Positions 21,957-40,543 of a DNA stretch of 42,708 nucleotides are shown one piece after another (the stretch's first letter is position 1; each line of letters starts with the position of its first letter). The notes beneath the pieces were generated by a model, which made no database searches, was not told the origin of the DNA, and saw only the letters and a list, made by a program, of their open reading frames with translations. The stretch is from a phage, in the sequence record QB031384.1; one strand, 5' to 3'. Both the position numbers and the translations under genes were made by a program.

Positions 21957-22378
21957 TTCTTAATCTCCTTTGCTGCACGTTTAACTGCACGCTGCTTACG
22001 TGCCTTAGCGTTAGCTACTAGGCGCTTCTCTTCTTCGGTCTTATGCGTAGGGTAAATATACTCAGTGGGTTCACGGTCTAAGTAATCTGCCATATTGCGT
22101 AGAGCATTGGCGATAGCAGCACTACTACCCATGCTACCAACAATCCACCTACCACAAGCGGACGCCACTTTCCCCTCACCCCCATTGCATGACCTATGCA
22201 ATGCACCACGTATACGCCCATTATTATGGTCATGGTCACATACAACACTGTCACCTTTAGCCCCCTTAATTGAGAAATCTAGCGGCTTACCGCAGAGTAG
22301 GCAATTGCCACCCTGCTCCTTAGCAAGTTTCATTGTAATAGTTCTGAGCTGCGCTCTAGTAACCTTACGCATTACCAT
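21953..22378 (-). CDS. Recombination endonuclease VII (junction-resolving enzyme)
   Basis: 141-aa ORF with CLLCGKPL ... CDHDHNNGRIRGALHRSCNGGEG, matching the Cys/His-rich zinc-binding core of T4 endonuclease VII. Confidence 0.75.
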   Translation of the reverse strand: MVMRKVTRAQLRTITMKLAKEQGGNCLLCGKPLDFSIKGAKGDSVVCDHDHNNGRIRGALHRSCNGGEGKVASACGRWIVGSMGSSAAIANALRNMADYLDREPTEYIYPTHKTEEEKRLVANAKARKQRAVKRAAKEIKK

Positions 22379-23848: not shown

Positions 23849-24640
23849 TTAAAGTGCAGGAGGAACAACAGCGAATGTAGGTGCGGCTGGAGCTACTGGG
23901 GCTACTGGAGCAGTTGGGGCAGCAGGTGCAGCAGGTGCAGATACTGAGGCAGGTGCAGCCATAGCCGCCATGTCAGGAACATCGCCCATTAGCATCTGCT
24001 GAAGAGCCGAGCCTTCGAAGTTAACTGCGCTCAGAATGTCTTCCTGAATGAAGTTGTTCTTCTCAATATGCAGAGAACCCCAAGTTTCTTTAGTCGGGTT
24101 ATCAAACAGGAACAGACGAAGACCTGATTCGTCCAATGCTGGCAGCTCTACCGGAGCGCCAGTCTGCGGGTCAAACTTAGGTAGAGTACGCAGACTCAGG
24201 AAGTCGATGGTGTTAGAAGTCTTACCAGCCTTACTGGTGTACTGCTCAACCTCAAACATGAACGCTTGGCCTAGACGTTGTGCCATGTGCTTCAGCGTGC
24301 CGTCATAGTTCATCTTGTCGAAGACTTGTTTAAACTTAGCTTTCTCGAAGCTGCTAATGGCCATTGGGAACGGATTAATACGCTTGATAGAACCATCAGG
24401 GGTGTAAACGATGAAGCCTAAGCGCACGTTCATTACTGCTGGCTTGCCAGTCGGCTTACCCATGTGCATAGGAATCTTTTTACCTAACTCGATGTACTCC
24501 ATGAAGCGGCCGAAGTAGGTACCTTTTGGCAGCAGTACATCGGCGAAGTTACCGCCTGACTGCGTTACTGATTGGTCGATACCTTGCTCAGCTACAGTTG
24601 CGTTAACGAGGGAAGACAGTGCGCTCAGATTGATGGTCAT
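23849..24640 (-). CDS. Hypothetical protein (263 aa) with Ala/Pro-rich low-complexity C-terminal tail
   Basis: ORF in the replication module. The last ~45 residues are low-complexity (APASVSAPAAPAAPTAPVAPVAPAAP...). Confidence 0.55.
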   Translation of the reverse strand: MTINLSALSSLVNATVAEQGIDQSVTQSGGNFADVLLPKGTYFGRFMEYIELGKKIPMHMGKPTGKPAVMNVRLGFIVYTPDGSIKRINPFPMAISSFEKAKFKQVFDKMNYDGTLKHMAQRLGQAFMFEVEQYTSKAGKTSNTIDFLSLRTLPKFDPQTGAPVELPALDESGLRLFLFDNPTKETWGSLHIEKNNFIQEDILSAVNFEGSALQQMLMGDVPDMAAMAAPASVSAPAAPAAPTAPVAPVAPAAPTFAVVPPAL

Positions 24641-24667
24641 ATTTGAATCCTTATATAAGTTTAAGAG

Positions 24668-24832
24668 TTACTTAGAGATTAATGTATTAGCAATACCATA
24701 GAACGTGGCAAGCAATGCAATCAGTGCCATCCCTACTACAGCGACTTTACCATAGAGTTGTATAAGGCCTAGTATACTAAATCCTACCGAACTTAGTGCG
24801 GCTGTTAGGCCCACTACCTTTAGAGTGCGCAT
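24668..24832 (-). CDS. Small hydrophobic protein (54 aa), not in ORF track
   Basis: ATG at 24832-24830 with AAGGT upstream; translation MRTLKVVGLTAALSSVGFSILGLIQLYGKVAVVGMALIALLATFYGIANTLISK, consistent with 1-2 transmembrane helices. Lies in a 300-bp gap. Confidence 0.35.
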   Translation of the reverse strand: MRTLKVVGLTAALSSVGFSILGLIQLYGKVAVVGMALIALLATFYGIANTLISK

Positions 24833-24943
24833 AGTGAAATACCTTAGTTGGTTGATTCACGCAAGGGGAAATCCGTTTGGGGAAGAACCAGCTCGCGTGG
24901 CTAATGCAAAAAGAAGGTGTATATGTAGGGAGGTACGAAGAGA

Positions 24944-25924
24944 TTACTTCTTACGCCCTACCCAACGGCCGTCGGAATCCATCAGCATGGGGATGAGGCT
25001 CGGACAACCTTCGGTAATAGTCATGACACCTAAGATGGGCTTGTTACGTGAGAGCTTGCCGTATGCAAATGCCATTGCCTTATGATCAATCAAGCAACCT
25101 GCGTGTGCACCAAAGTACAGTGCTGTGCTGCTGGCCTTGTAAGTGATATCATACTTTCCATGCTCGTGGCCTATCACCATACTGGTACGTTCATGAGAGG
25201 CGTTCAGCATGAGGTCACCAGATACTTGATGCTGGAATCGTACAGGTCCGGTCGGAGTATTCAACACCCACGCATCCGACCAACTCCACTTCTTAGCCCC
25301 GTGCTCTGGGAACAGAATGTCACGGTACTTCTTAATGAATTGTACTGGTAAGCCATGTGCCTTAGCTCGACGATACACTAAGCTGCCGTGGTTGGAGTCA
25401 CACACCAGCAGGTTAGGGAAGAGGTCATGAATCTTAGCAAGATAAGCCTTAGCCTTCTCCAGTTCTACCCCCGCGCTATCTAGGTCAGGGTCAGAGTCGT
25501 GGAAGCTGATAGCGTGACCATCCGTCTCATCGCCTACCTGAACAACCATGTCAGGGCCGTAACTGTCTCTTACAGAACGAAGGAAAGCGAGAGCGTCAGG
25601 ATGTGTATAAGGAGCGTGCAAGTCTCCTACAACAAGGATGCGGTGGCACATATCAGGCACATTAGTATCGCCAATGTCGTCCGTAGGGGAAGGCTGAATA
25701 AGTTTACGAGCCTCGACCAAACCTTTGTTAGCTTTTGCTTTACTACCATTTGCGGCCTCATAAATTCTACGCCAGTACTTGACCAGCTGACGGTAAACTA
25801 CCGGCTCGCTCAGACCAGATGCTTCGTTATAAGCTGCTGCTGCCTCGACGTTAGATTTGTACTTGCTAAGAATCTCTTGATGTTGCTCTTTAGTGAACAG
25901 CTTAATAGCGTTAATGCGTGGCAT
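24944..25924 (-). CDS. Calcineurin-like metallophosphoesterase
   Basis: 326-aa ORF with metallophosphatase motifs in order: VVGDLHAPY, QVGDETDGH, CDSNHG, IGHEHG. Confidence 0.7.
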   Translation of the reverse strand: MPRINAIKLFTKEQHQEILSKYKSNVEAAAAYNEASGLSEPVVYRQLVKYWRRIYEAANGSKAKANKGLVEARKLIQPSPTDDIGDTNVPDMCHRILVVGDLHAPYTHPDALAFLRSVRDSYGPDMVVQVGDETDGHAISFHDSDPDLDSAGVELEKAKAYLAKIHDLFPNLLVCDSNHGSLVYRRAKAHGLPVQFIKKYRDILFPEHGAKKWSWSDAWVLNTPTGPVRFQHQVSGDLMLNASHERTSMVIGHEHGKYDITYKASSTALYFGAHAGCLIDHKAMAFAYGKLSRNKPILGVMTITEGCPSLIPMLMDSDGRWVGRKK

Positions 25925-26018: not shown

Positions 26019-26591
26019 TTACATTGCCCAATCAGGACGCTCACCCTTACCGCAGTAAAAGTCAATCAGGTCTAGTAAGCGCGGATAATACTTCAGCGAA
26101 CTCTTACCGTCCATTTCCGCAACCTGGCGCCTACTGAAGCTGCGCCACTCTGCTGCCGTATGCTGCTGACATCCTGCACGCACTATGTCCTTACAGATAC
26201 TAATGAAGTACGTTTCTCCGTATATAATGACAGTCTTGGCGCCGCGCAGGTCAGCGCGGCGCAGGTTAGCGCCGCGCAGGTCAGCGTAGCGCAGGTCAGC
26301 GTCGCGCAGGTCAGTACCGGTCAGGTCAGCGCCGCGCAGGTCAGCGATGCGCAGGTCAGCGTCGCGCAGGTCAGCGCCGCTCAGGTCAGCGCCGCGCAGG
26401 TCAGTACCGGTCAGGTCAGCGCCGCGCAGGTTAGCGTAGCGCAGGTTAGCGCCGCGCAGGTCAGCGTCGCGCAGGTCAGTGCTGCTCAGGTCAGCGTCGC
26501 ACAGGTCAGCGTCGCGCAGGTTAGCGCGGCGCAGGTCAACGCTGTGCAGTCTTCCTAACTTATATATTTCGCAGATTTCTTGATAGTTCAT
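26019..26591 (-). CDS. Pentapeptide-repeat protein 1 (about 21 tandem A(D/N)LxG-type pentapeptides plus 70-aa non-repeat C-terminal domain)
   Basis: 190-aa ORF with an unbroken run of [15 protein letters not shown] pentapeptides after the N-terminal cap [12 protein letters not shown]. Strand chosen because all flanking genes are minus-strand. Confidence 0.8.
26238..26549. repeat. Tandem array of about 21 copies of a 15-bp unit (CGCAGGTCAGCGNCG-like) encoding the pentapeptide repeats
   Basis: Periodicity is visible directly: gcgcaggtcagcg recurs every 15 bp, varying mainly at 2-3 positions per unit. Confidence 0.9.
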
Positions 26592-27378: not shown

Positions 27379-27489
27379 ATTGAATCCTCTTAAGTCTGCA
27401 ACCTCACCGCGAAGTTGCTTAACTAAGAGACTTCCTTAGCGAGTCTTATTTCTCTTAGACTCTCATCTGCATCGCACTGTATTACCTGT

Positions 27490-27638
27490 GCACGGGAGGA
27501 ACCGCTCAAGCTCGTACTATCTACCCAGAGCTTTCAGGAGGGCACCGGGATTAAAGTCCCCGGTGACTAACAAGCCGCTTTGCTATCTGCATCTCGTCTT
27601 GATGAAATGAATTCTACAGCATTCTAAAACTGTGTCAA
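27490..27638 (-). promoter_or_regulatory. Promoter-leader cassette R1: sigma70-like promoter (TTGACA - 16 bp - TAGAAT) plus conserved structured 5' leader
   Basis: -35 at 27633-27638 and -10 at 27611-27616. Downstream leader contains a hairpin (CACCGGG/CCCGGTG), GCCCTCCTGAA, a second hairpin with loop GGGTAGATA, and GAGCGGTTCCTCCCGT. Homologous to copies at 34406-34528 and 35943-36080. Confidence 0.55.
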
Positions 27639-27650
27639 CACTTATTTTAA

Positions 27651-28838
27651 TTAAATTACCTCTTCCTCTTTAAAGGATTTACCAATACCACATTCGGCGG
27701 GAAACTTAACTTCAGACAGTATGCCAAAGTTAGGCCACAACTGTAGCATCCTATCACGGGCTCCTTCCATAACGTTTTTGATGAGCTTACCCGCCTTACG
27801 GGCCGTCTCTTCGTCAGCACAATCTATGTACAAACAGTCATGGACGGTAACCAGCAAACACCATTTACCCCCCATCCAATTGTCAGCTATACCAGCCCTC
27901 ATAGCCATTCCGGTTGCAATAAGCATAAGCAGGGAACCTGATCCTTGAAACGGATAGTTAGCCATCTCTGTGGGCTTAAAGTCCATTACCTGCTTACCTT
28001 CGCGCCACACCGGCTTCTGACGGAAGCGGTAGCGAGTACCGCAAGGCGTAGTGAAGTAGCCCTCGCGATAGATACGCCAGCTGCCGTCATCTGCTTGTTC
28101 ACGGCGTATAGGCTCCAGCAGCGCAGTACGGTTTACTTCAGCTGCAATGACATCCCTGTACTTAATAGACTCAGGGAATAGTGCCTCCTCGTTAGCTAAG
28201 AACTTCTCAGCGTCGGCTAAGCTAGCACCTGAGGCGAACGCCAGTCCTTTAGCGGATGCTCCATATTGTGCTGCGAAGCTGAAGGTTTTGATGGCTGTTC
28301 GCTTCTTCTTCCATCCTTTATGGTCCGGTGCATCCGGGTTATGGCAAAGCTCGTAGACTTCTTCATAAGGCATACCTTCTTGGAATGCTAGACGATAGCA
28401 GTGCATATCCGTACCGGCTTCAAGCAAGCTCAGTAATTTCTTATCACCAGTGATTACACAGCCCATTACAACCTCCATAGCTGAGTAGTCACACTGTGCA
28501 ATCATACCCTGCTCACCATAGCGGCTACGCAGAATCTGCTTAACCTTAGACTCACGCGGCAGCTGCTGCATGTTCGGGTTAGATGTTGACAGGCGTCCGG
28601 TAGTAGTTGAGCAGTGATTCGACCTGTGGTGAATGATGCCAGAACCATCTGCTGATGTAGGGATGACGTACGGCAGCATGCCCGTCACCTTACGCAGACT
28701 GCCATCCTTATTAGTCTCACGTACTTCATAGAAGCCGAGGTCCTTCTGGCGTGTAGTCATTTCTTTGTATGCTTTGAAGAAGTCTGAAGCTAACTTAGCC
28801 ATCTTGTTCCATCCCAATAAAATAATGTGCAAGGTCAT
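27651..28838 (-). CDS. DNA polymerase, family A: polymerase (fingers/palm) part
   Basis: 395-aa ORF with TGRLSTSNPNMQQLP, motif A-like CDYSAMEV, motif B-like RTAIKTFSFAAQYG and motif C VHD. Overlaps the upstream exonuclease-domain ORF by 44 nt in a different frame. Confidence 0.85.
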   Translation of the reverse strand: MTLHIILLGWNKMAKLASDFFKAYKEMTTRQKDLGFYEVRETNKDGSLRKVTGMLPYVIPTSADGSGIIHHRSNHCSTTTGRLSTSNPNMQQLPRESKVKQILRSRYGEQGMIAQCDYSAMEVVMGCVITGDKKLLSLLEAGTDMHCYRLAFQEGMPYEEVYELCHNPDAPDHKGWKKKRTAIKTFSFAAQYGASAKGLAFASGASLADAEKFLANEEALFPESIKYRDVIAAEVNRTALLEPIRREQADDGSWRIYREGYFTTPCGTRYRFRQKPVWREGKQVMDFKPTEMANYPFQGSGSLLMLIATGMAMRAGIADNWMGGKWCLLVTVHDCLYIDCADEETARKAGKLIKNVMEGARDRMLQLWPNFGILSEVKFPAECGIGKSFKEEEVI

Positions 28839-29940
28839 TCATTGCGTCCGTTCCTGTGCTGTACACAGGGCTACCATCCGCTAATGTTTGAGCACCTTTG
28901 TATTCACCGCGGTCTCCGTACTTCTCACGTAGAGACTGAGGTAGGTCCTGAATATTAACCAGCCCGTCGAAGCGGTACAGGCGTTCACCCCACTTCATAG
29001 CTTGCTCGTCAGTGTCTACTTTTATGAACTTAGGCATACCCTTATTACGCCCAGACTTATACACCCCGTCCTGTACTTCCTTCTTAATGTATTTAGGTGG
29101 GTCATAAGGAACCTTGCACTTGTACTTAACCATGCCACCATACACTAAAGCGGACATATGATAACCGCTATTCCAGTTAAACTCGAAGCCCTCTGGCAAT
29201 TCTGGCAAGAATGTCTGAAGTAACTCCCGCAGATTCCGAATAGCGTCCTCCTGCTCCTTCTGGTTTACGCGTGCTGTAGGCATATCAACGTACACGCCAT
29301 TGAACTCACAGTATGCCAGAGCTGCGACTGCCTCCATCCTTTCCCAGACCATAGGCATCTGTCCACGTTCCGCAAATACTGCGCATTGCCCGTAGAAGCA
29401 CAGCGCTGTGTTGACTATGTCACCGTTAGGCCCTGTTAAGTATTCATGTAGTAGCATAGGGTCAATGTCTGCTGTCAGAACCCCTTGCTGCCATAGTAGC
29501 TTAACGCCGTCGACTTTGTGTGACCCGCCATACTTAGGGGCAGTCTCATCTAGTGACGGGTAAAGATTCTGGAAGTCGCTGGCAATGTACTCGCCCTGCA
29601 TAGTATCAAAGACTCGACCTCCTCGTCTAAGGAACGACTCGAACTGCTCACGGGCAAAGGTCAGCGCCCAGCTAATCTCGTACGCTGCGTTGTGCGCTAC
29701 GATTAACCACGTATCATCCTGAATAGGTAGCCACTGCTTAGGGTCAGCTGCTAAGAAATCAGTTCGGGATTCATAGCGTACACTCTGCACCTCGCTGCAC
29801 TGTACAGTCCCATCCGGCATAGTCCTATCAATGCGGAAGCCTGATTCTACGATGTAGTTATCAGGGCAGTACGGAGTTGCGACCCCGCCGTAGTACGGAT
29901 GATTTTGAGTTTCAATATCCCAAATTAGAATGCTACTCAT
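28795..29940 (-). CDS. DNA polymerase, family A: N-terminal 3'-5' exonuclease part (separate frame from the polymerase part)
   Basis: Exo I motif WDIET near the N-terminus. The ORF track starts it at a TTG (29946); the ATG at 29940 overlaps the upstream small ORF's stop as ATGA. Ends 44 nt inside the polymerase-domain ORF. Confidence 0.8.
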   Translation of the reverse strand: MSSILIWDIETQNHPYYGGVATPYCPDNYIVESGFRIDRTMPDGTVQCSEVQSVRYESRTDFLAADPKQWLPIQDDTWLIVAHNAAYEISWALTFAREQFESFLRRGGRVFDTMQGEYIASDFQNLYPSLDETAPKYGGSHKVDGVKLLWQQGVLTADIDPMLLHEYLTGPNGDIVNTALCFYGQCAVFAERGQMPMVWERMEAVAALAYCEFNGVYVDMPTARVNQKEQEDAIRNLRELLQTFLPELPEGFEFNWNSGYHMSALVYGGMVKYKCKVPYDPPKYIKKEVQDGVYKSGRNKGMPKFIKVDTDEQAMKWGERLYRFDGLVNIQDLPQSLREKYGDRGEYKGAQTLADGSPVYSTGTDAMNDLAHYFIGMEQDG

Positions 29941-30089
29941 TTCCAATTACTCCGACGTGATTTATTAATGGCTGCCCGTACAATCATCTCGCTACTGTCC
30001 AGCGTGTAGCGCCTAACCTGCTTACGATTGTTAGCAATTGCTCTGATGACTTCGTAGTCTGCCTCAGTAATATCACTTTGCTTTAGCAT
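29937..30089 (-). CDS. Small basic ORF (50 aa), not in ORF track
   Basis: ATG at 30089-30087 preceded by GGTGAGGTG; stop overlaps the DNA polymerase ATG. Translation MLKQSDITEADYEVIRAIANNRKQVRRYTLDSSEMIVRAAINKSRRSNWK. Confidence 0.35.
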   Translation of the reverse strand: MLKQSDITEADYEVIRAIANNRKQVRRYTLDSSEMIVRAAINKSRRSNWK

Positions 30090-32813: not shown

Positions 32814-33350
32814 TTAGATACTAACCCAATCAGCGACGCGCAGGTCAGCGTCGCGCAGGTCAGTGCCGGTCAGGTCAGCGCCGCGCAGGTTAGCGCCGCG
32901 CAGGTTAGCGCCAATCAGGTTAGCGTCGCGCAGGTTAGCGCCGCTCAGGTCAGTGCCGCGCAGGTTAGCGCCGCGCAGGTTAGCGCCGTGCAGGTCAGCG
33001 CTGCGCAGGTCAGCGCCGCTCAGGTCAGCGCCGCTCAGGTCAGCGATGTTCAGGTCAGCGTAGCGCAGGTCAGCGCCGCGCAGGTCAGCGCCGCTCAGGT
33101 CAGCGCCGCGCAGGTTAGCGCCAATCAGGTTAGCGTCGCGCAGCTTAGCGTCGCTCAGGTCAGCGACGCGCAGGTCAGCGTCGCTCAGGTCAGCGTAGCG
33201 CAGGTCAGCGCCGCTCAGGTCAGCGCCGCGCAGGTCAGCGTCGAGCAGGTTAGCGCGGCGCAGGTCAGCGCCGCACAGGTCAGCGCCGCACAGGTCAGCG
33301 CCTTCCAAGGATTCTAACTTGTATTTATTACAGATATTGTCATAAGTCAT
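32814..33350 (-). CDS. Pentapeptide-repeat protein 2 (about 32 tandem pentapeptides; paralogue of 26019-26591)
   Basis: Unbroken A(D/N)L(R/S/C)G-type run that ends at the stop codon. Preferred start is the internal ATG at 33350 (GAGGT SD 8 nt upstream; cap MTYDNICNKYKL matches [12 protein letters not shown] of protein 1). The ORF track extends it to 33401. Confidence 0.8.
   Translation of the reverse strand: MTYDNICNKYKLESLEGADLCGADLCGADLRRANLLDADLRGADLSGADLRYADLSDADLRVADLSDAKLRDANLIGANLRGADLSGADLRGADLRYADLNIADLSGADLSGADLRSADLHGANLRGANLRGTDLSGANLRDANLIGANLRGANLRGADLTGTDLRDADLRVADWVSI
32827..33302. repeat. Tandem array of about 32 copies of the same 15-bp unit (CGCAGGTCAGCGNCG-like)
   Basis: Same 15-bp periodicity and unit sequence as the array at 26238-26549, on the same strand. 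Confidence 0.9.
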
Positions 33351-33360
33351 ATTAGTAACC

Positions 33361-33597
33361 TCAGTTAATTTTAATATTAAAACGTGCACAATACCCTTCA
33401 AGGGTCATCCCTACTTTAGCTGCTTTAAGACTGTAAGCTAACTTAAGAGCTTCCTTAGCGTCATGCTCACGAGCCAGCTTCTCAATCGTTACTTCATCAT
33501 TACGCATCAGAATCATTTCGGGGTTCCGGTTAATCATTTCTGCATCTCCAGTTTGAAAAGGGCCATTGCAGCGTTCCAGGCGAAACGCGGGTTGCAT
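33361..33597 (-). CDS. Hypothetical protein (78 aa)
   Basis: ORF-track ORF in the early/middle region. No motif recognised. Confidence 0.45.
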   Translation of the reverse strand: MQPAFRLERCNGPFQTGDAEMINRNPEMILMRNDEVTIEKLAREHDAKEALKLAYSLKAAKVGMTLEGYCARFNIKIN

Positions 33598-34312: not shown

Positions 34313-34405
34313 CTTAACTCCTTAGTGGTTTTATTAAAGCCCTCCGCAGAAGGCTTTGTAAAACTACTTTAGTTTCTTTCATCTCAGACCCACTGAATTA
34401 TCCGT

Positions 34406-34528
34406 GGACGGGAGGAACCGCTCGAGCCTGTTCTATCTACCCTAGGCTCTCAGAAGGGCAATCACTTAGCGTTGTTGATTAACGTCCTGCTATGAATCCA
34501 ACTATACTCCTATTTTATTTTGTGTCAA
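34406..34528 (-). promoter_or_regulatory. Promoter-leader cassette R2: sigma70-like promoter (TTGACA - 16 bp - TATAGT) plus conserved structured leader
   Basis: -35 at 34523-34528 and -10 at 34501-34506. Leader has a hairpin (AATCA/TGATT), GCCCTTCTGA, a GAGCC/GGCTC stem around GGGTAGATA, and GAGCGGTTCCTCCCGT. Confidence 0.55.
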
Positions 34529-34531
34529 CAC

Positions 34532-35448: not shown

Positions 35449-35543
35449 CTCAGGAGAACAGTTGAATTAAGCCGTAGATAGCTAAGAAAGGTGCTGCTAC
35501 CTGCAACAGCATTAAAGGGATGATGAATAGCATGTACAGTGTA

Positions 35544-35882
35544 TTACGCATTATGTGCATTCTCCTCACAATACTGCAACGCAAAGCGCAGCAATTCATT
35601 ATACAGCGAAGTAGTCAGAATCCCTTCATTGTAGTACTCAGCCTCATGCTTACGGAGAGTATCCTTAGCAGCGCATGCAACCTTCAAGCTGCACCCTGTA
35701 GCCTGCATAAGGCCGCGTACAAGCTGTGTATCCTTATAAGCTTTCTTAGCATGCCATTTAACAAAACTTACTGCTGCACCTACAACAACCATACCACCCA
35801 TCACGACAAAGCCAATTGCACTAGACATATCATATACCTTTAATTCTGTACCCTCGCAGCGAGGATACTTAACTAAAGACAT
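35544..35882 (-). CDS. Hypothetical membrane protein (112 aa)
   Basis: First ORF after promoter-leader cassette R3. Contains one clear hydrophobic helix (GFVVMGGMVVVGAAVSFV). Confidence 0.45.
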   Translation of the reverse strand: MSLVKYPRCEGTELKVYDMSSAIGFVVMGGMVVVGAAVSFVKWHAKKAYKDTQLVRGLMQATGCSLKVACAAKDTLRKHEAEYYNEGILTTSLYNELLRFALQYCEENAHNA

Positions 35883-35942
35883 CTTAGCGAAGCTCTTGTC
35901 TCTTCAATCTAGTGAGCTTCTCATCTATTCCCTCTGTATAAC

Positions 35943-36080
35943 CCGAGGACGCTAGGTAACGCTCAGAACCTGTTTATCTACCCCGATTCTTCAGGAGGGC
36001 AGCGGCTTTATGTTATCCGCTAACGTCTTGCTTATGTCTTGCTATGTGATGAAGTATACGCTTCAAAACAGGTAAGTCAA
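35943..36080 (-). promoter_or_regulatory. Promoter-leader cassette R3: sigma70-like promoter (TTGACT - 16 bp - TATACT) plus conserved structured leader
   Basis: -35 at 36075-36080 and -10 at 36053-36058. Leader has a hairpin (AGCGG/CCGCT), GCCCTCCTGAA, an AGAAUC/GGUUCU stem (one G-U pair) around GGGTAGATA, and a diverged GAGCG...CCUC segment. Confidence 0.55.
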
Positions 36081-36135
36081 CAACTATTTTCAATTATTTC
36101 ATTCAGCGTAGTAAAATCTCGCACTATTAATAACA

Positions 36136-39171: not shown

Positions 39172-39735
39172 TTATTTAGGCATAGCAGCTACTGCTGCTT
39201 GCATAGATTTAAATTCGTTGCCAATAGCTTTGGCTTCCCACTTACGGCGCTCCCAGAGCCCGTAGCAGACCTTATTAGGTTTACCCTTTACCAACATACT
39301 ACAGTCGTACTTAACCCCGTTACGGGTGATATAGCGCCAGCTAAGTACAGCCTTAGCTGCACCTTTAGTATCGCCTTGCATTAGCTTTCGCTTCGCGGTA
39401 CTGTTCTTGAAACCTGAGATACCGGTGTTATAGGTCATGTCCAAAGCACCAAGAATCTGTACGTCCGTAAGGGACATAGGAAGCCCGTCAAGAGCCTTAG
39501 CATGCTCCCCAGCTGATTGTATCAGTTGTTGCTTACACTGCGTCAGAGTGGCTGTATCGCCCATCCTAACGCCCTTAGTCTCACCATAGCAGATAGTAGG
39601 TACTCCGGCGGAGTCCTTGTATGCCTTAAGGGAGAGACCTTCGTTATGCTGTATCACCATAGCGATACTGGCGCCCAGCAGGGAAGTCCCTGCCAGCGCC
39701 GCCTTAACCTTGTTGCTTATGCTCATAGTATTCAA
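39172..39735 (-). CDS. Endolysin, lysozyme family (GH24-like) with N-terminal signal or signal-anchor-release segment
   Basis: 187-aa ORF with catalytic-region pattern EGLSLKAYKDSAGVPTICYGET (E ... D ... T) preceded by the weakly hydrophobic N-terminus KVKAALAGTSLLGASIAMVI. Confidence 0.8.
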   Translation of the reverse strand: MNTMSISNKVKAALAGTSLLGASIAMVIQHNEGLSLKAYKDSAGVPTICYGETKGVRMGDTATLTQCKQQLIQSAGEHAKALDGLPMSLTDVQILGALDMTYNTGISGFKNSTAKRKLMQGDTKGAAKAVLSWRYITRNGVKYDCSMLVKGKPNKVCYGLWERRKWEAKAIGNEFKSMQAAVAAMPK

Positions 39736-39952
39736 GGCCCTTCTCTAAGGCTCGCTCCTTGAGCTTGTACTCTTTGTGCCTGTAGTATGCGTTCCATGCA
39801 AAGGTCAGTACAGCTACAACCGTACCGACTATGAAGGAGATTGTCCCCCAGTTCCAAGACATTATGTTTGCCATCCAACCGCCGCCCATAGTAGCGACTG
39901 ACACATTCGTTCCTACACGGGTGATAGTTTCCCCGTTAATTGGTAGACTCAT
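39704..39952 (-). CDS. Putative holin (82 aa from SD-supported internal ATG; the ORF track extends it to 40027)
   Basis: Hydrophobic helix WGTISFIVGTVVAVLTFAW followed by a charged C-terminus, immediately upstream of the endolysin. The ATG at 39952 has AAGGA 9 nt upstream. Confidence 0.4.
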   Translation of the reverse strand: MSLPINGETITRVGTNVSVATMGGGWMANIMSWNWGTISFIVGTVVAVLTFAWNAYYRHKEYKLKERALEKGLEYYEHKQQG

Positions 39953-40361
39953 CGCTTTCGTCCTTAGTTCTTCCGAGTTTGCGGAACAACAGGACAATGA
40001 TGAGGATTGCGATTGGAACCGCTGCACCTGCCAGTCCTGCTAGAATTATGCTAGTACCGTCATTGTTAACAACCTGTACTCGCTCCGTGTTAATGGTTCC
40101 AGTAGTAACTGAACTGGACTGCTTCTTGGTAGAAGTATCCAGCGTGCCTACGTTAGAATCTTTAATTGATGTTTCATTGTCCGTGCTGGAGTCGGACTTG
40201 CCATTAAGGCCTACAGTTTGTTTCGTATTCTCTGCGCCAGCTTGCACGGACAGGTCTGGCTTAGAGCCAATAAGACCTGTCAATGCAGAGGTCGCTGAGC
40301 AGCCTACCAAACACCCTGTAAGAGCCGTAGCGAGGACTAACCCAGCGACCTTAGCCCGCAT
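39936..40361 (-). CDS. Lipoprotein with C-terminal transmembrane helix (unimolecular-spanin-like)
   Basis: 141-aa ORF. N-terminal signal with lipobox LTGC, a Ser/Thr-rich middle, then C-terminal TMD IILAGLAGAAVPIAILIIVLLF and a charged tail. Confidence 0.5.
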   Translation of the reverse strand: MRAKVAGLVLATALTGCLVGCSATSALTGLIGSKPDLSVQAGAENTKQTVGLNGKSDSSTDNETSIKDSNVGTLDTSTKKQSSSVTTGTINTERVQVVNNDGTSIILAGLAGAAVPIAILIIVLLFRKLGRTKDESDESTN

Positions 40362-40543
40362 CAGGCTGCTGCTTTAACGGCAGCGATAGCCGCTTCCAGA
40401 GCCGCTACTTTAGCATCGTATGCAGCGCCTACAGAGTTCACATCCAGAGGCTGGGTCATAATCTTATAAACCTCCTTAGCGTGAATAGTAAGTTGACGCT
40501 GAAGCTCAATCTTCTGAGCGGGGGTAGCTTTTGCAATTGCCAT
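40361..40543 (-). CDS. Hypothetical protein (60 aa, Ala-rich)
   Basis: ORF-track ORF between terminase large subunit and the lysis genes. No motif recognised. Confidence 0.4.
   Translation of the reverse strand: MAIAKATPAQKIELQRQLTIHAKEVYKIMTQPLDVNSVGAAYDAKVAALEAAIAAVKAAA

Follow-up and report, generated by a model that had tools for sequence, protein, structure and literature searches.

What occupies the gap between the metallophosphoesterase gene and the 263-aa gene of this phage, and what could its product do there? The stretch of DNA analyzed here (QB031384.1, about 42.7 kb; hereafter the window) resembles a complete podophage genome in which the minus strand carries all of the genes. 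Among deposited sequences, Escherichia phage vB_EcoP_P64441 (Autographivirales, Slopekvirinae; hereafter P64441) comes closest, with 87% identity over 85% of a 2.2-kb probe. The original prediction placed a small hydrophobic protein of 54 aa in a gap of about 300 bp in the replication module, upstream of the 263-aa gene. The gap and the open reading frame (ORF54) are both there, the latter in the same direction as every other gene of the window, and the flanking genes assign them to the DNA-metabolism (middle) module (Table 1). We propose, with a probability of about 0.6, that a one-gene cassette of about 190 bp carries ORF54 as a real accessory gene of the phage, and that its product is an inner-membrane protein acting with conditional benefit.

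Table 1. Coordinates of ORF54, its surroundings and other features of the window
Feature	Position	Strand	Description or basis
ORF54	24668..24832	minus	ATG, 54 codons, TAA; translation MRTLKVVGLTAALSSVGFSILGLIQLYGKVAVVGMALIALLATFYGIANTLISK
Shine-Dalgarno core of ORF54	24842..24846	minus	TAAGG, 9 nt before the ATG
Presence/absence cassette, ~190 bp	approx. 24649..24840	minus	RBS and ORF54; alignments with P64441, ECO104, S.Kent, L007 and L008
Conserved noncoding leader	24833..24943	minus	upstream of ORF54
Leader hairpin	~24858..24899		8-bp stem, CACGCGAG...CTTGCGTG; fold z-score -2.6
Anti-SD-like CCUCC	near 24925-24933		GUACCUCC, just after the phosphoesterase stop
Gap holding ORF54	24641..24943		303 bp, between the phosphoesterase stop and the start of the 263-aa gene
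Spacer from ORF54 stop to 263-aa gene	24641..24667	minus	27 nt; contains the RBS of the 263-aa gene, TAAGGA; with ORF54, constitutes the cassette missing from relatives
Metallophosphoesterase gene, 326 aa	24944..25924	minus	phrog_221; PHROG match 7e-110 and annotations of relatives
263-aa gene	23849..24640	minus	phrog_862, function unknown; PHROG match 1e-66
Lysis cassette (spanin, holin, endolysin)	~39172..40543		synteny with annotated P64441
Pentapeptide-repeat protein gene	26019..26591	minus	translation and PHROG matches
Second, putative pentapeptide-repeat gene	32814..33401	minus	position relative to the second annotated CDS of P64441 only
DNA polymerase ORFs	27651..28838; 28795..29946	minus	395 aa and 383 aa, consecutive and overlapping
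~83-nt elements	~27462..27544; 34378..34460; 35919..36001	minus	in intergenic regions 27379-27650, 34313-34531 and 35883-36135
Hydrophobic small ORF, probably spurious	22078..22254	minus	58 aa, GTG start; GRAVY 1.39
Endonuclease gene, 141 aa	21953..22378		contains the preceding ORF in a different frame
Very hydrophobic small ORF, early region	35450..35599	minus	from internal Met 33 aa, MRNTLYMLFIIPLMLLQVAAPFLAIYGLIQLFS

The metallophosphoesterase and 263-aa (phrog_862) genes form the 5' and 3' borders, respectively, of a variable slot. Upstream of ORF54, the operon carries the genes for the DNA polymerase, a pentapeptide-repeat protein and the phosphoesterase; downstream come phrog_862, phrog_6607 and an exonuclease gene and, further on, endonuclease and RNA polymerase genes. 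For the 263-aa protein, we found no Pfam family and no solved relative, and its homologues are present in 79 IMG/VR loci. It ends in an Ala/Pro-rich, low-complexity tail (APAAPAAPTAPVAPVAPAAP...) and is conserved across Slopekvirinae-like phages. The apparent division of the DNA polymerase into two ORFs, be it a true split or a frameshift, recurs in P64441, which is likewise annotated with two DNA polymerase CDSs. The two pentapeptide-repeat genes of Table 1, the second of them putative, would belong to a class whose products act as DNA mimics in other systems.

The length of ORF54 alone is not significant, since shuffling the gap yields an ORF of at least 54 aa on the same strand in 14% of the shuffles. 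The case for translation comes from other features. ORF54 rises above chance because it lies on the coding strand, has a Shine-Dalgarno sequence, shows frame-consistent substitutions, coincides with an RBS-plus-ORF indel and encodes an extremely hydrophobic product. In a listing of the intergenic regions, ACTAAGG and TAAGGA sites like the one preceding ORF54 precede other genes of the phage. The sole homologue of ORF54 (P0001), predicted as a 54-aa product by the gene caller of a 2.1-kb Logan contig from SRR5447143, has 96% amino acid identity, an intact frame and the same neighbors. Six nucleotide differences separate the two genes: four are synonymous and two are conservative nonsynonymous changes (V33A and G46V). 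The resulting pN/pS is 0.19 in the ORF54 frame versus 0.9 to 1.7 in four other frames; in the fifth alternative frame, it is undefined (no synonymous and five nonsynonymous changes). With one very close relative and six substitutions, this pattern is marginal (binomial p of ~0.05). Moreover, the Logan relative has an indel of 1 nt some 20 nt before the ATG, which breaks any longer frame and thereby supports the ATG at 24832 as the start of ORF54. On the other side of the gene, the spacer to the 263-aa gene is identical between the window and locus L004.

Codon usage gives a weakly positive log-odds score of 0.13 bit per codon, which places ORF54 21st among 166 small ORFs. The GC content of ORF54 is 42% versus 48% for the genome, and its GC3 is 0.35 versus 0.48 for the reference genes, which for so short a sequence is weak evidence; this atypical composition could be that of a foreign or young gene, or could just follow from encoding a hydrophobic product. 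Taken together, we consider it likely that ORF54 is a real, translated gene. Conservation of the frame in related genomes had been proposed as the check on the original prediction, and the outcome is split. The frame is intact, and apparently under purifying selection, in the single relative bearing the DNA, but the ORF is absent from every other relative examined, which makes ORF54 an accessory gene and not a conserved one.

If ORF54 is translated, its product is very likely a membrane protein. Its GRAVY value of 1.36 ranks second among the 166 ORFs of 40 to 90 aa in the window, and its hydrophobicity is organized in two helix-length blocks, in keeping with the small hydrophobic protein that had been predicted. 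Kyte-Doolittle means over 19 residues peak at 2.05 (residues 6 to 24) and 2.31 (residues 30 to 48). Hessa sums, computed with Hessa 2005 scale values and no positional terms, are marginal for the first of these segments (+0.83 kcal/mol) and clearly membrane competent for the second (-0.97). The predicted protein has a basic N terminus (MRTLK), a Gly-, Ala- and Ser-rich helix of marginal hydrophobicity (residues 6 to 24) and a strongly hydrophobic helix (residues 30 to 52), with no soluble domain. Residues 25 to 29 (QLYGK) are a possible turn, in which Tyr27-Gly28-Lys29 looks interfacial. AlphaFold2, run on the two-sequence alignment, returned an all-helical model with one uninterrupted helix (residues 2 to 53, pLDDT 89). 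A helix of about 52 residues would be too long for a single span, and the model did not produce a hairpin. Judging from the sequence, ORF54 may form a tight hairpin, may have a SAR-like first helix or may carry a signal peptide whose cleavage, with ALS|S and SVG|F as candidate sites, would leave a single-span protein of about 37 to 40 aa.

Two other hydrophobic small ORFs of the window deserve mention. The most hydrophobic of all, at 22078..22254, lies wholly within the 141-aa endonuclease gene and is probably spurious. The other lies in the early region, in a part of the window that corresponds, by position and not by alignment, to a 33-aa hypothetical CDS of P64441 (29840..29941).

Alignment with relatives delimits the cassette. 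The slot measures 303 to 304 bp with ORF54 and 94 to 114 bp without it in the aligned relatives, and the block that makes the difference, found only in the window and in SRR5447143 among the aligned sequences, is one RBS-plus-ORF unit. ORF54 is missing from P64441, from ECO104 4-5-2 and S.Kent 1-2-1 (both unverified wastewater assemblies) and from IMG/VR loci L007, L008 and L012. The ends of the cassette are ambiguous, as the RBS-region motif AAC.A..TAAGG.ATT..A.ATG is repeated at both junctions: an imperfect repeat of this region reads AACCAACTAAGGTATTTCACTATG before ORF54 and AAACTTATATAAGGATTCAAATATG before the 263-aa gene, while in relatives with an empty slot it occurs only once (e.g., AAACTACTTAAGGAATTTAAAATATG). 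ORF54 could therefore have been gained or lost by recombination at this short repeat. A simple consensus scan, which weak or noncanonical signals could escape, covered both strands of 24400..25100 and detected neither a sigma-70-like promoter nor an intrinsic terminator; ORF54 is thus taken to be cotranscribed with the operon. The possibility that the cassette is a structured noncoding RNA was rejected: neither strand shows an excess of RNA structure (z of +1.0 and -0.1), and the search of Rfam returned nothing.

Between the phosphoesterase stop and ORF54 lies the conserved noncoding leader. Compared with locus L004, its 111 nt show two substitutions and one 1-nt indel, versus a pS of 0.22 in the neighboring gene, so that the leader is more conserved than the synonymous sites of that gene. 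It is also conserved in ECO104, S.Kent and L008, where it directly precedes the 263-aa gene; ORF54 therefore appears to have slotted in between a preexisting leader and the gene that this leader served. In the minimum-free-energy fold, the anti-SD-like sequence within the leader pairs with the Shine-Dalgarno sequence of ORF54 (AGGUAU), a pairing that is missing from the centroid structure; in this model, it could mask translation. We also considered the leader as a repeated phage-promoter motif and rejected this possibility. The leader is single copy in the window, and the motif CCTRCAT..RCAC is not clearly enriched (8 matches with at most one mismatch versus a shuffle mean of 3.3), its other matches lying inside genes.

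Elsewhere in the window, three copies of an element of about 83 nt each follow a strong sigma-70-like promoter (TTGACA...TAGAAT, TATAGT or TATACT), at a distance of 68 to 94 nt from its TTGAC -35 box. They share a consensus fold of two stem-loops in which the GGGTAGATA loop is invariant, compensatory changes occur in 9 of the 21 pairs among the three copies, and all three are conserved at equivalent places in P64441; none has an Rfam match. The put sites of HK022 are cis-acting antitermination leader RNAs. By position and shape, the elements recall cis-acting leader RNAs of this kind or RNase III processing sites.

Beyond P0001, no homologue of ORF54 was recovered by a word-indexed search of 5.8 billion proteins or by exhaustive phmmer against 1.84 billion representative proteins. 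A tblastn search of 50,697 phage records with the peptide gave no match, and a search of IMG/VR and the JGI metagenomes with back-translated peptide words gave pattern matches only, none of which was confirmed. Comparison with Pfam, PHROG and NCBIfam at E values up to 10 returned nothing meaningful, and blastn detected no counterpart of the cassette in 5,426 complete E. coli genomes. Within the window, blastn-short and tblastn detected neither an internal duplication nor a paralogue. ORF54 is thus an orphan, with one homologue among 1.84 billion representatives that is itself uncharacterized. Our literature searches on the slot, the Trp-rich family described below, the small membrane proteins of Autographiviridae and SRR5447143 returned nothing relevant.

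With the 263-aa protein as an anchor, 79 IMG/VR loci were collected, and the interval between the phosphoesterase and phrog_862 genes was classified in 70 loci. A small hydrophobic two-helix ORF is present in 37 of these, and 21 are empty (51 to 114 bp). An ORF of at least 100 aa, taken as an HNH endonuclease, occurs in 12 loci (alone in 6, and in 6 with a membrane ORF already counted), a small soluble ORF occurs in 7 (alone in 4, and in 3 with a membrane ORF already counted), and the remaining 2 hold something else. All but two of the 37 membrane ORFs belong to the phrog_1374 family, the exceptions being ORF54 and its Logan homologue. With a phrog_1374 protein in 35 of the 70 slots, a tiny membrane protein at this position is common in the subfamily. 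The family is exemplified by gp25 of Klebsiella phage Kp2 (YP_009188335, MGICSVLGLIFVTLKLTGVIAWSWLWVLLPFWGP...; L006 2136..2294; PHROG match 4e-18), is annotated in some records as "small Trp-rich protein" or "transmembrane fragile-X-F protein" and shows weak similarity to TIGR04438 and PF10269.

ORF54 shares with the Trp-rich proteins the slot, the strand, two hydrophobic helices, the lack of a soluble domain, a patchy presence and a similar size range (54 aa versus 52 to 80 aa). The two are nevertheless not detectably homologous. The core LKLTGV..WSW.WVLLPF is invariant in 10 members of the family, whereas ORF54 lacks this motif and contains neither Trp nor Pro. Homology to the Trp-rich occupant was rejected on an hhalign probability of 1.4% and the absence of a PHROG match at E values up to 10; the pairwise BLASTP alignment (E of 0.01 over 29 residues) is compositional. 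Since position and architecture match and homology does not, ORF54 is an analogue of the phrog_1374 family and not a member.

The Trp-rich family has features of its own. In Kp2 gp25 and the 35 IMG/VR loci (e.g., L018, L019 and L071), the N-terminal half is almost invariant (MGICSVLGLIFVTLKLTGVIAWSW.WVLLPF), while the second helix and the tail are highly variable in sequence and length (52 to 80 aa); this pattern, read from the sequences, may reflect diversifying pressure on one of the helices. Members are also found in phages of Mycobacterium, Gordonia, Bacillus, Vibrio and Aeromonas. In the distant phages of L075 (1485..1914) and L077 (2173..2420), at 30 to 37% identity, two or three small hydrophobic ORFs (36 to 75 aa) lie just upstream of the phrog_862 homologue, and the association of small membrane ORFs with phrog_862 thus extends beyond Slopekvirinae.

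Comparison with characterized systems offers functional models. HK97 gp15, a moron product, is an inner-membrane superinfection-exclusion protein. Like a moron, ORF54 is an additional gene separating two that stand side by side in relatives (a clean difference of about 190 bp), has an atypical base composition, encodes a small predicted inner-membrane product and is dispensable. Unlike classical morons, it has no promoter or terminator of its own in the consensus scan and is therefore not an autonomous transcription unit; its phage is a lytic podophage and not a prophage, and its sequence is not similar to that of gp15. The T4 superinfection immunity protein, Imm, is a small protein of the inner membrane that has two hydrophobic segments and that a lytic phage makes ahead of its late functions. 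By analogy, it is a plausible functional model for ORF54, whose predicted product is likewise small, destined for the inner membrane and composed of two hydrophobic segments, and would also be made by a lytic phage ahead of the late functions. ORF54 is, however, shorter than Imm. In Pfam, PHROG and NCBIfam, it matches no family, and these collections show no sequence relationship to a characterized exclusion protein. ORF54 is akin to many small accessory phage membrane proteins, yet no sequence-based comparison places it among any of them.

Could ORF54 be spurious? The insert might be noncoding filler, such as a recombination scar or a regulatory spacer, that is by chance open and T-rich at second codon positions. 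This would agree with the frequency of equally long ORFs in shuffled gaps, the weak codon-usage score, the single match and lack of a family in the protein searches and the existence of close relatives entirely without ORF54. Set against this are a proper Shine-Dalgarno sequence at proper spacing before an ATG on the coding strand, a preponderance of synonymous over conservative substitutions in the ORF54 frame only and indel boundaries that coincide with a complete RBS-plus-ORF unit. The two helix-length blocks of extreme hydrophobicity and the unremarkable folding of the cassette RNA also speak for a protein, and sister phages have a genuine, conserved small membrane protein at the corresponding place. 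We consider such filler improbable, and the broader possibility that ORF54 is not translated at all about as improbable or slightly less so. A translated ORF54 might instead be a pinholin-, antiholin- or viroporin-like protein that oligomerizes via small-residue helix faces and depolarizes the membrane or tunes the phage's own holin. Class II holins and pinholins, such as S68 of lambdoid phage 21, are similar in size and in the two-helix layout that ORF54 may adopt, their first hydrophobic block being, as in ORF54, weakly hydrophobic and rich in Gly, Ala and Ser (SAR-like). Their two transmembrane helices leave both termini inside the cell; ORF54 shows two hydrophobic blocks, the first of them marginal, and a single continuous helix in the AlphaFold2 model. 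Small-xxx-small patterns are readable in the ORF54 sequence, and this podophage group does use a holin and endolysin cassette. That cassette, however, is complete and lies about 15 kb from ORF54, which sits in the DNA-metabolism operon and is therefore not the lysis holin. Nor does ORF54 have the charged C-terminal tail (it ends in ...ANTLISK, with a single charge) or the dual-start motif, its initiator being the only Met before residue 35. It has no detectable homology to class II holins, and a tblastn search of the window matched neither the phage's own holin nor any other part of the sequence. Close relatives manage without ORF54, and a lethal pore former expressed from the middle operon would act prematurely. 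A lysis or pore role is accordingly unlikely.

ORF54 could also serve as a membrane partner or anchor for the phrog_862 protein or the replication machinery, which would explain why small membrane proteins recur upstream of phrog_862. The p1 and p16.7 proteins of phi29 organize replication at the membrane. In more than half of the classified loci, as well as in the diverged L075 and L077, the phrog_862 gene is preceded immediately by a small membrane ORF, and the short distance from the ORF54 stop to the phrog_862 start suggests coexpression. But ORF54 lacks a soluble domain that could bind DNA or protein, and the slot is empty in almost a third of the loci, the closest relatives included. As the phrog_862 proteins of these slot-empty relatives are 90 to 95% identical to that of the window, an obligate partnership is excluded, and a partnership of any kind seems very unlikely. 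Least probable, to the point of being far-fetched, is a type I toxin-like hydrophobic peptide under antisense RNA control. The size and hydrophobicity of ORF54 do fall in the range of Hok, Ldr and TisB-type toxins, which are similarly small and hydrophobic. Yet the scan of 24400..25100 picked up nothing promoter-like on either strand, the plus-strand transcript is not unusually structured and Rfam returns no antitoxin RNA. The E. coli genomes contain nothing similar, and an addiction module would be of no obvious use to a lytic podophage.

We therefore favor an accessory inner-membrane protein encoded by a cassette in a recombination-prone slot of the middle operon. ORF54 would be transcribed by read-through from upstream along with the replication genes, and its own TAAGG would serve for translation. 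Its product would most likely insert in the host inner membrane, as a helical hairpin or as a single span following a signal-like or SAR-like helix. Since no part of it would lie outside the bilayer, it could act only inside the membrane, and the likeliest mode would be helix-helix binding to an inner-membrane component of the host or of a competitor phage. Since close relatives do without the gene, its benefit should be conditional; it may consist in excluding superinfecting phages, in neutralizing a membrane-bound host function or in a strain-specific adaptation. Among the roles considered, we tentatively rank exclusion or a host-membrane target first, by analogy and as a possibility rather than an expectation, ahead of lysis timing or pore formation, partnership with phrog_862 and a type I toxin-like function. 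The superinfection exclusion or host takeover suggested by the original prediction is thus reasonable and plausible by analogy, with nothing that favors exclusion specifically over other membrane roles.

It is also conceivable, if rather doubtful, that unrelated tiny membrane proteins have been selected at one slot for one job, ORF54 in the E. coli-phage clade and the Trp-rich proteins in Klebsiella Drulisvirus, in a case of nonorthologous displacement; the small membrane ORFs of L075 and L077 may belong to the same pattern. The shared job could be to gate the inner membrane against competitor phage DNA during replication or to work with the phrog_862 protein.

Taken alone, ORF54 adds one to the many orphan small membrane proteins of lytic phages, a common kind of gene, and it deserves annotation. 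It also marks a well-defined slot in the Slopekvirinae-like replication operon, one that has repeatedly gained tiny membrane proteins or homing endonucleases. The phages with the gene (the window and SRR5447143) and those without it (P64441, L007 and L008) form natural, isogenic-like pairs that would provide a clean test of what such proteins do. If ORF54 excludes phages or counters a membrane-bound host function, this would bear on the design of phage cocktails and on the function of the Trp-rich family. Should the displacement hypothesis be true, ORF54 would offer a new, sequence-independent handle on the function of a family that is carried by hundreds of phages infecting Klebsiella, Mycobacterium, Gordonia, Bacillus and Vibrio.
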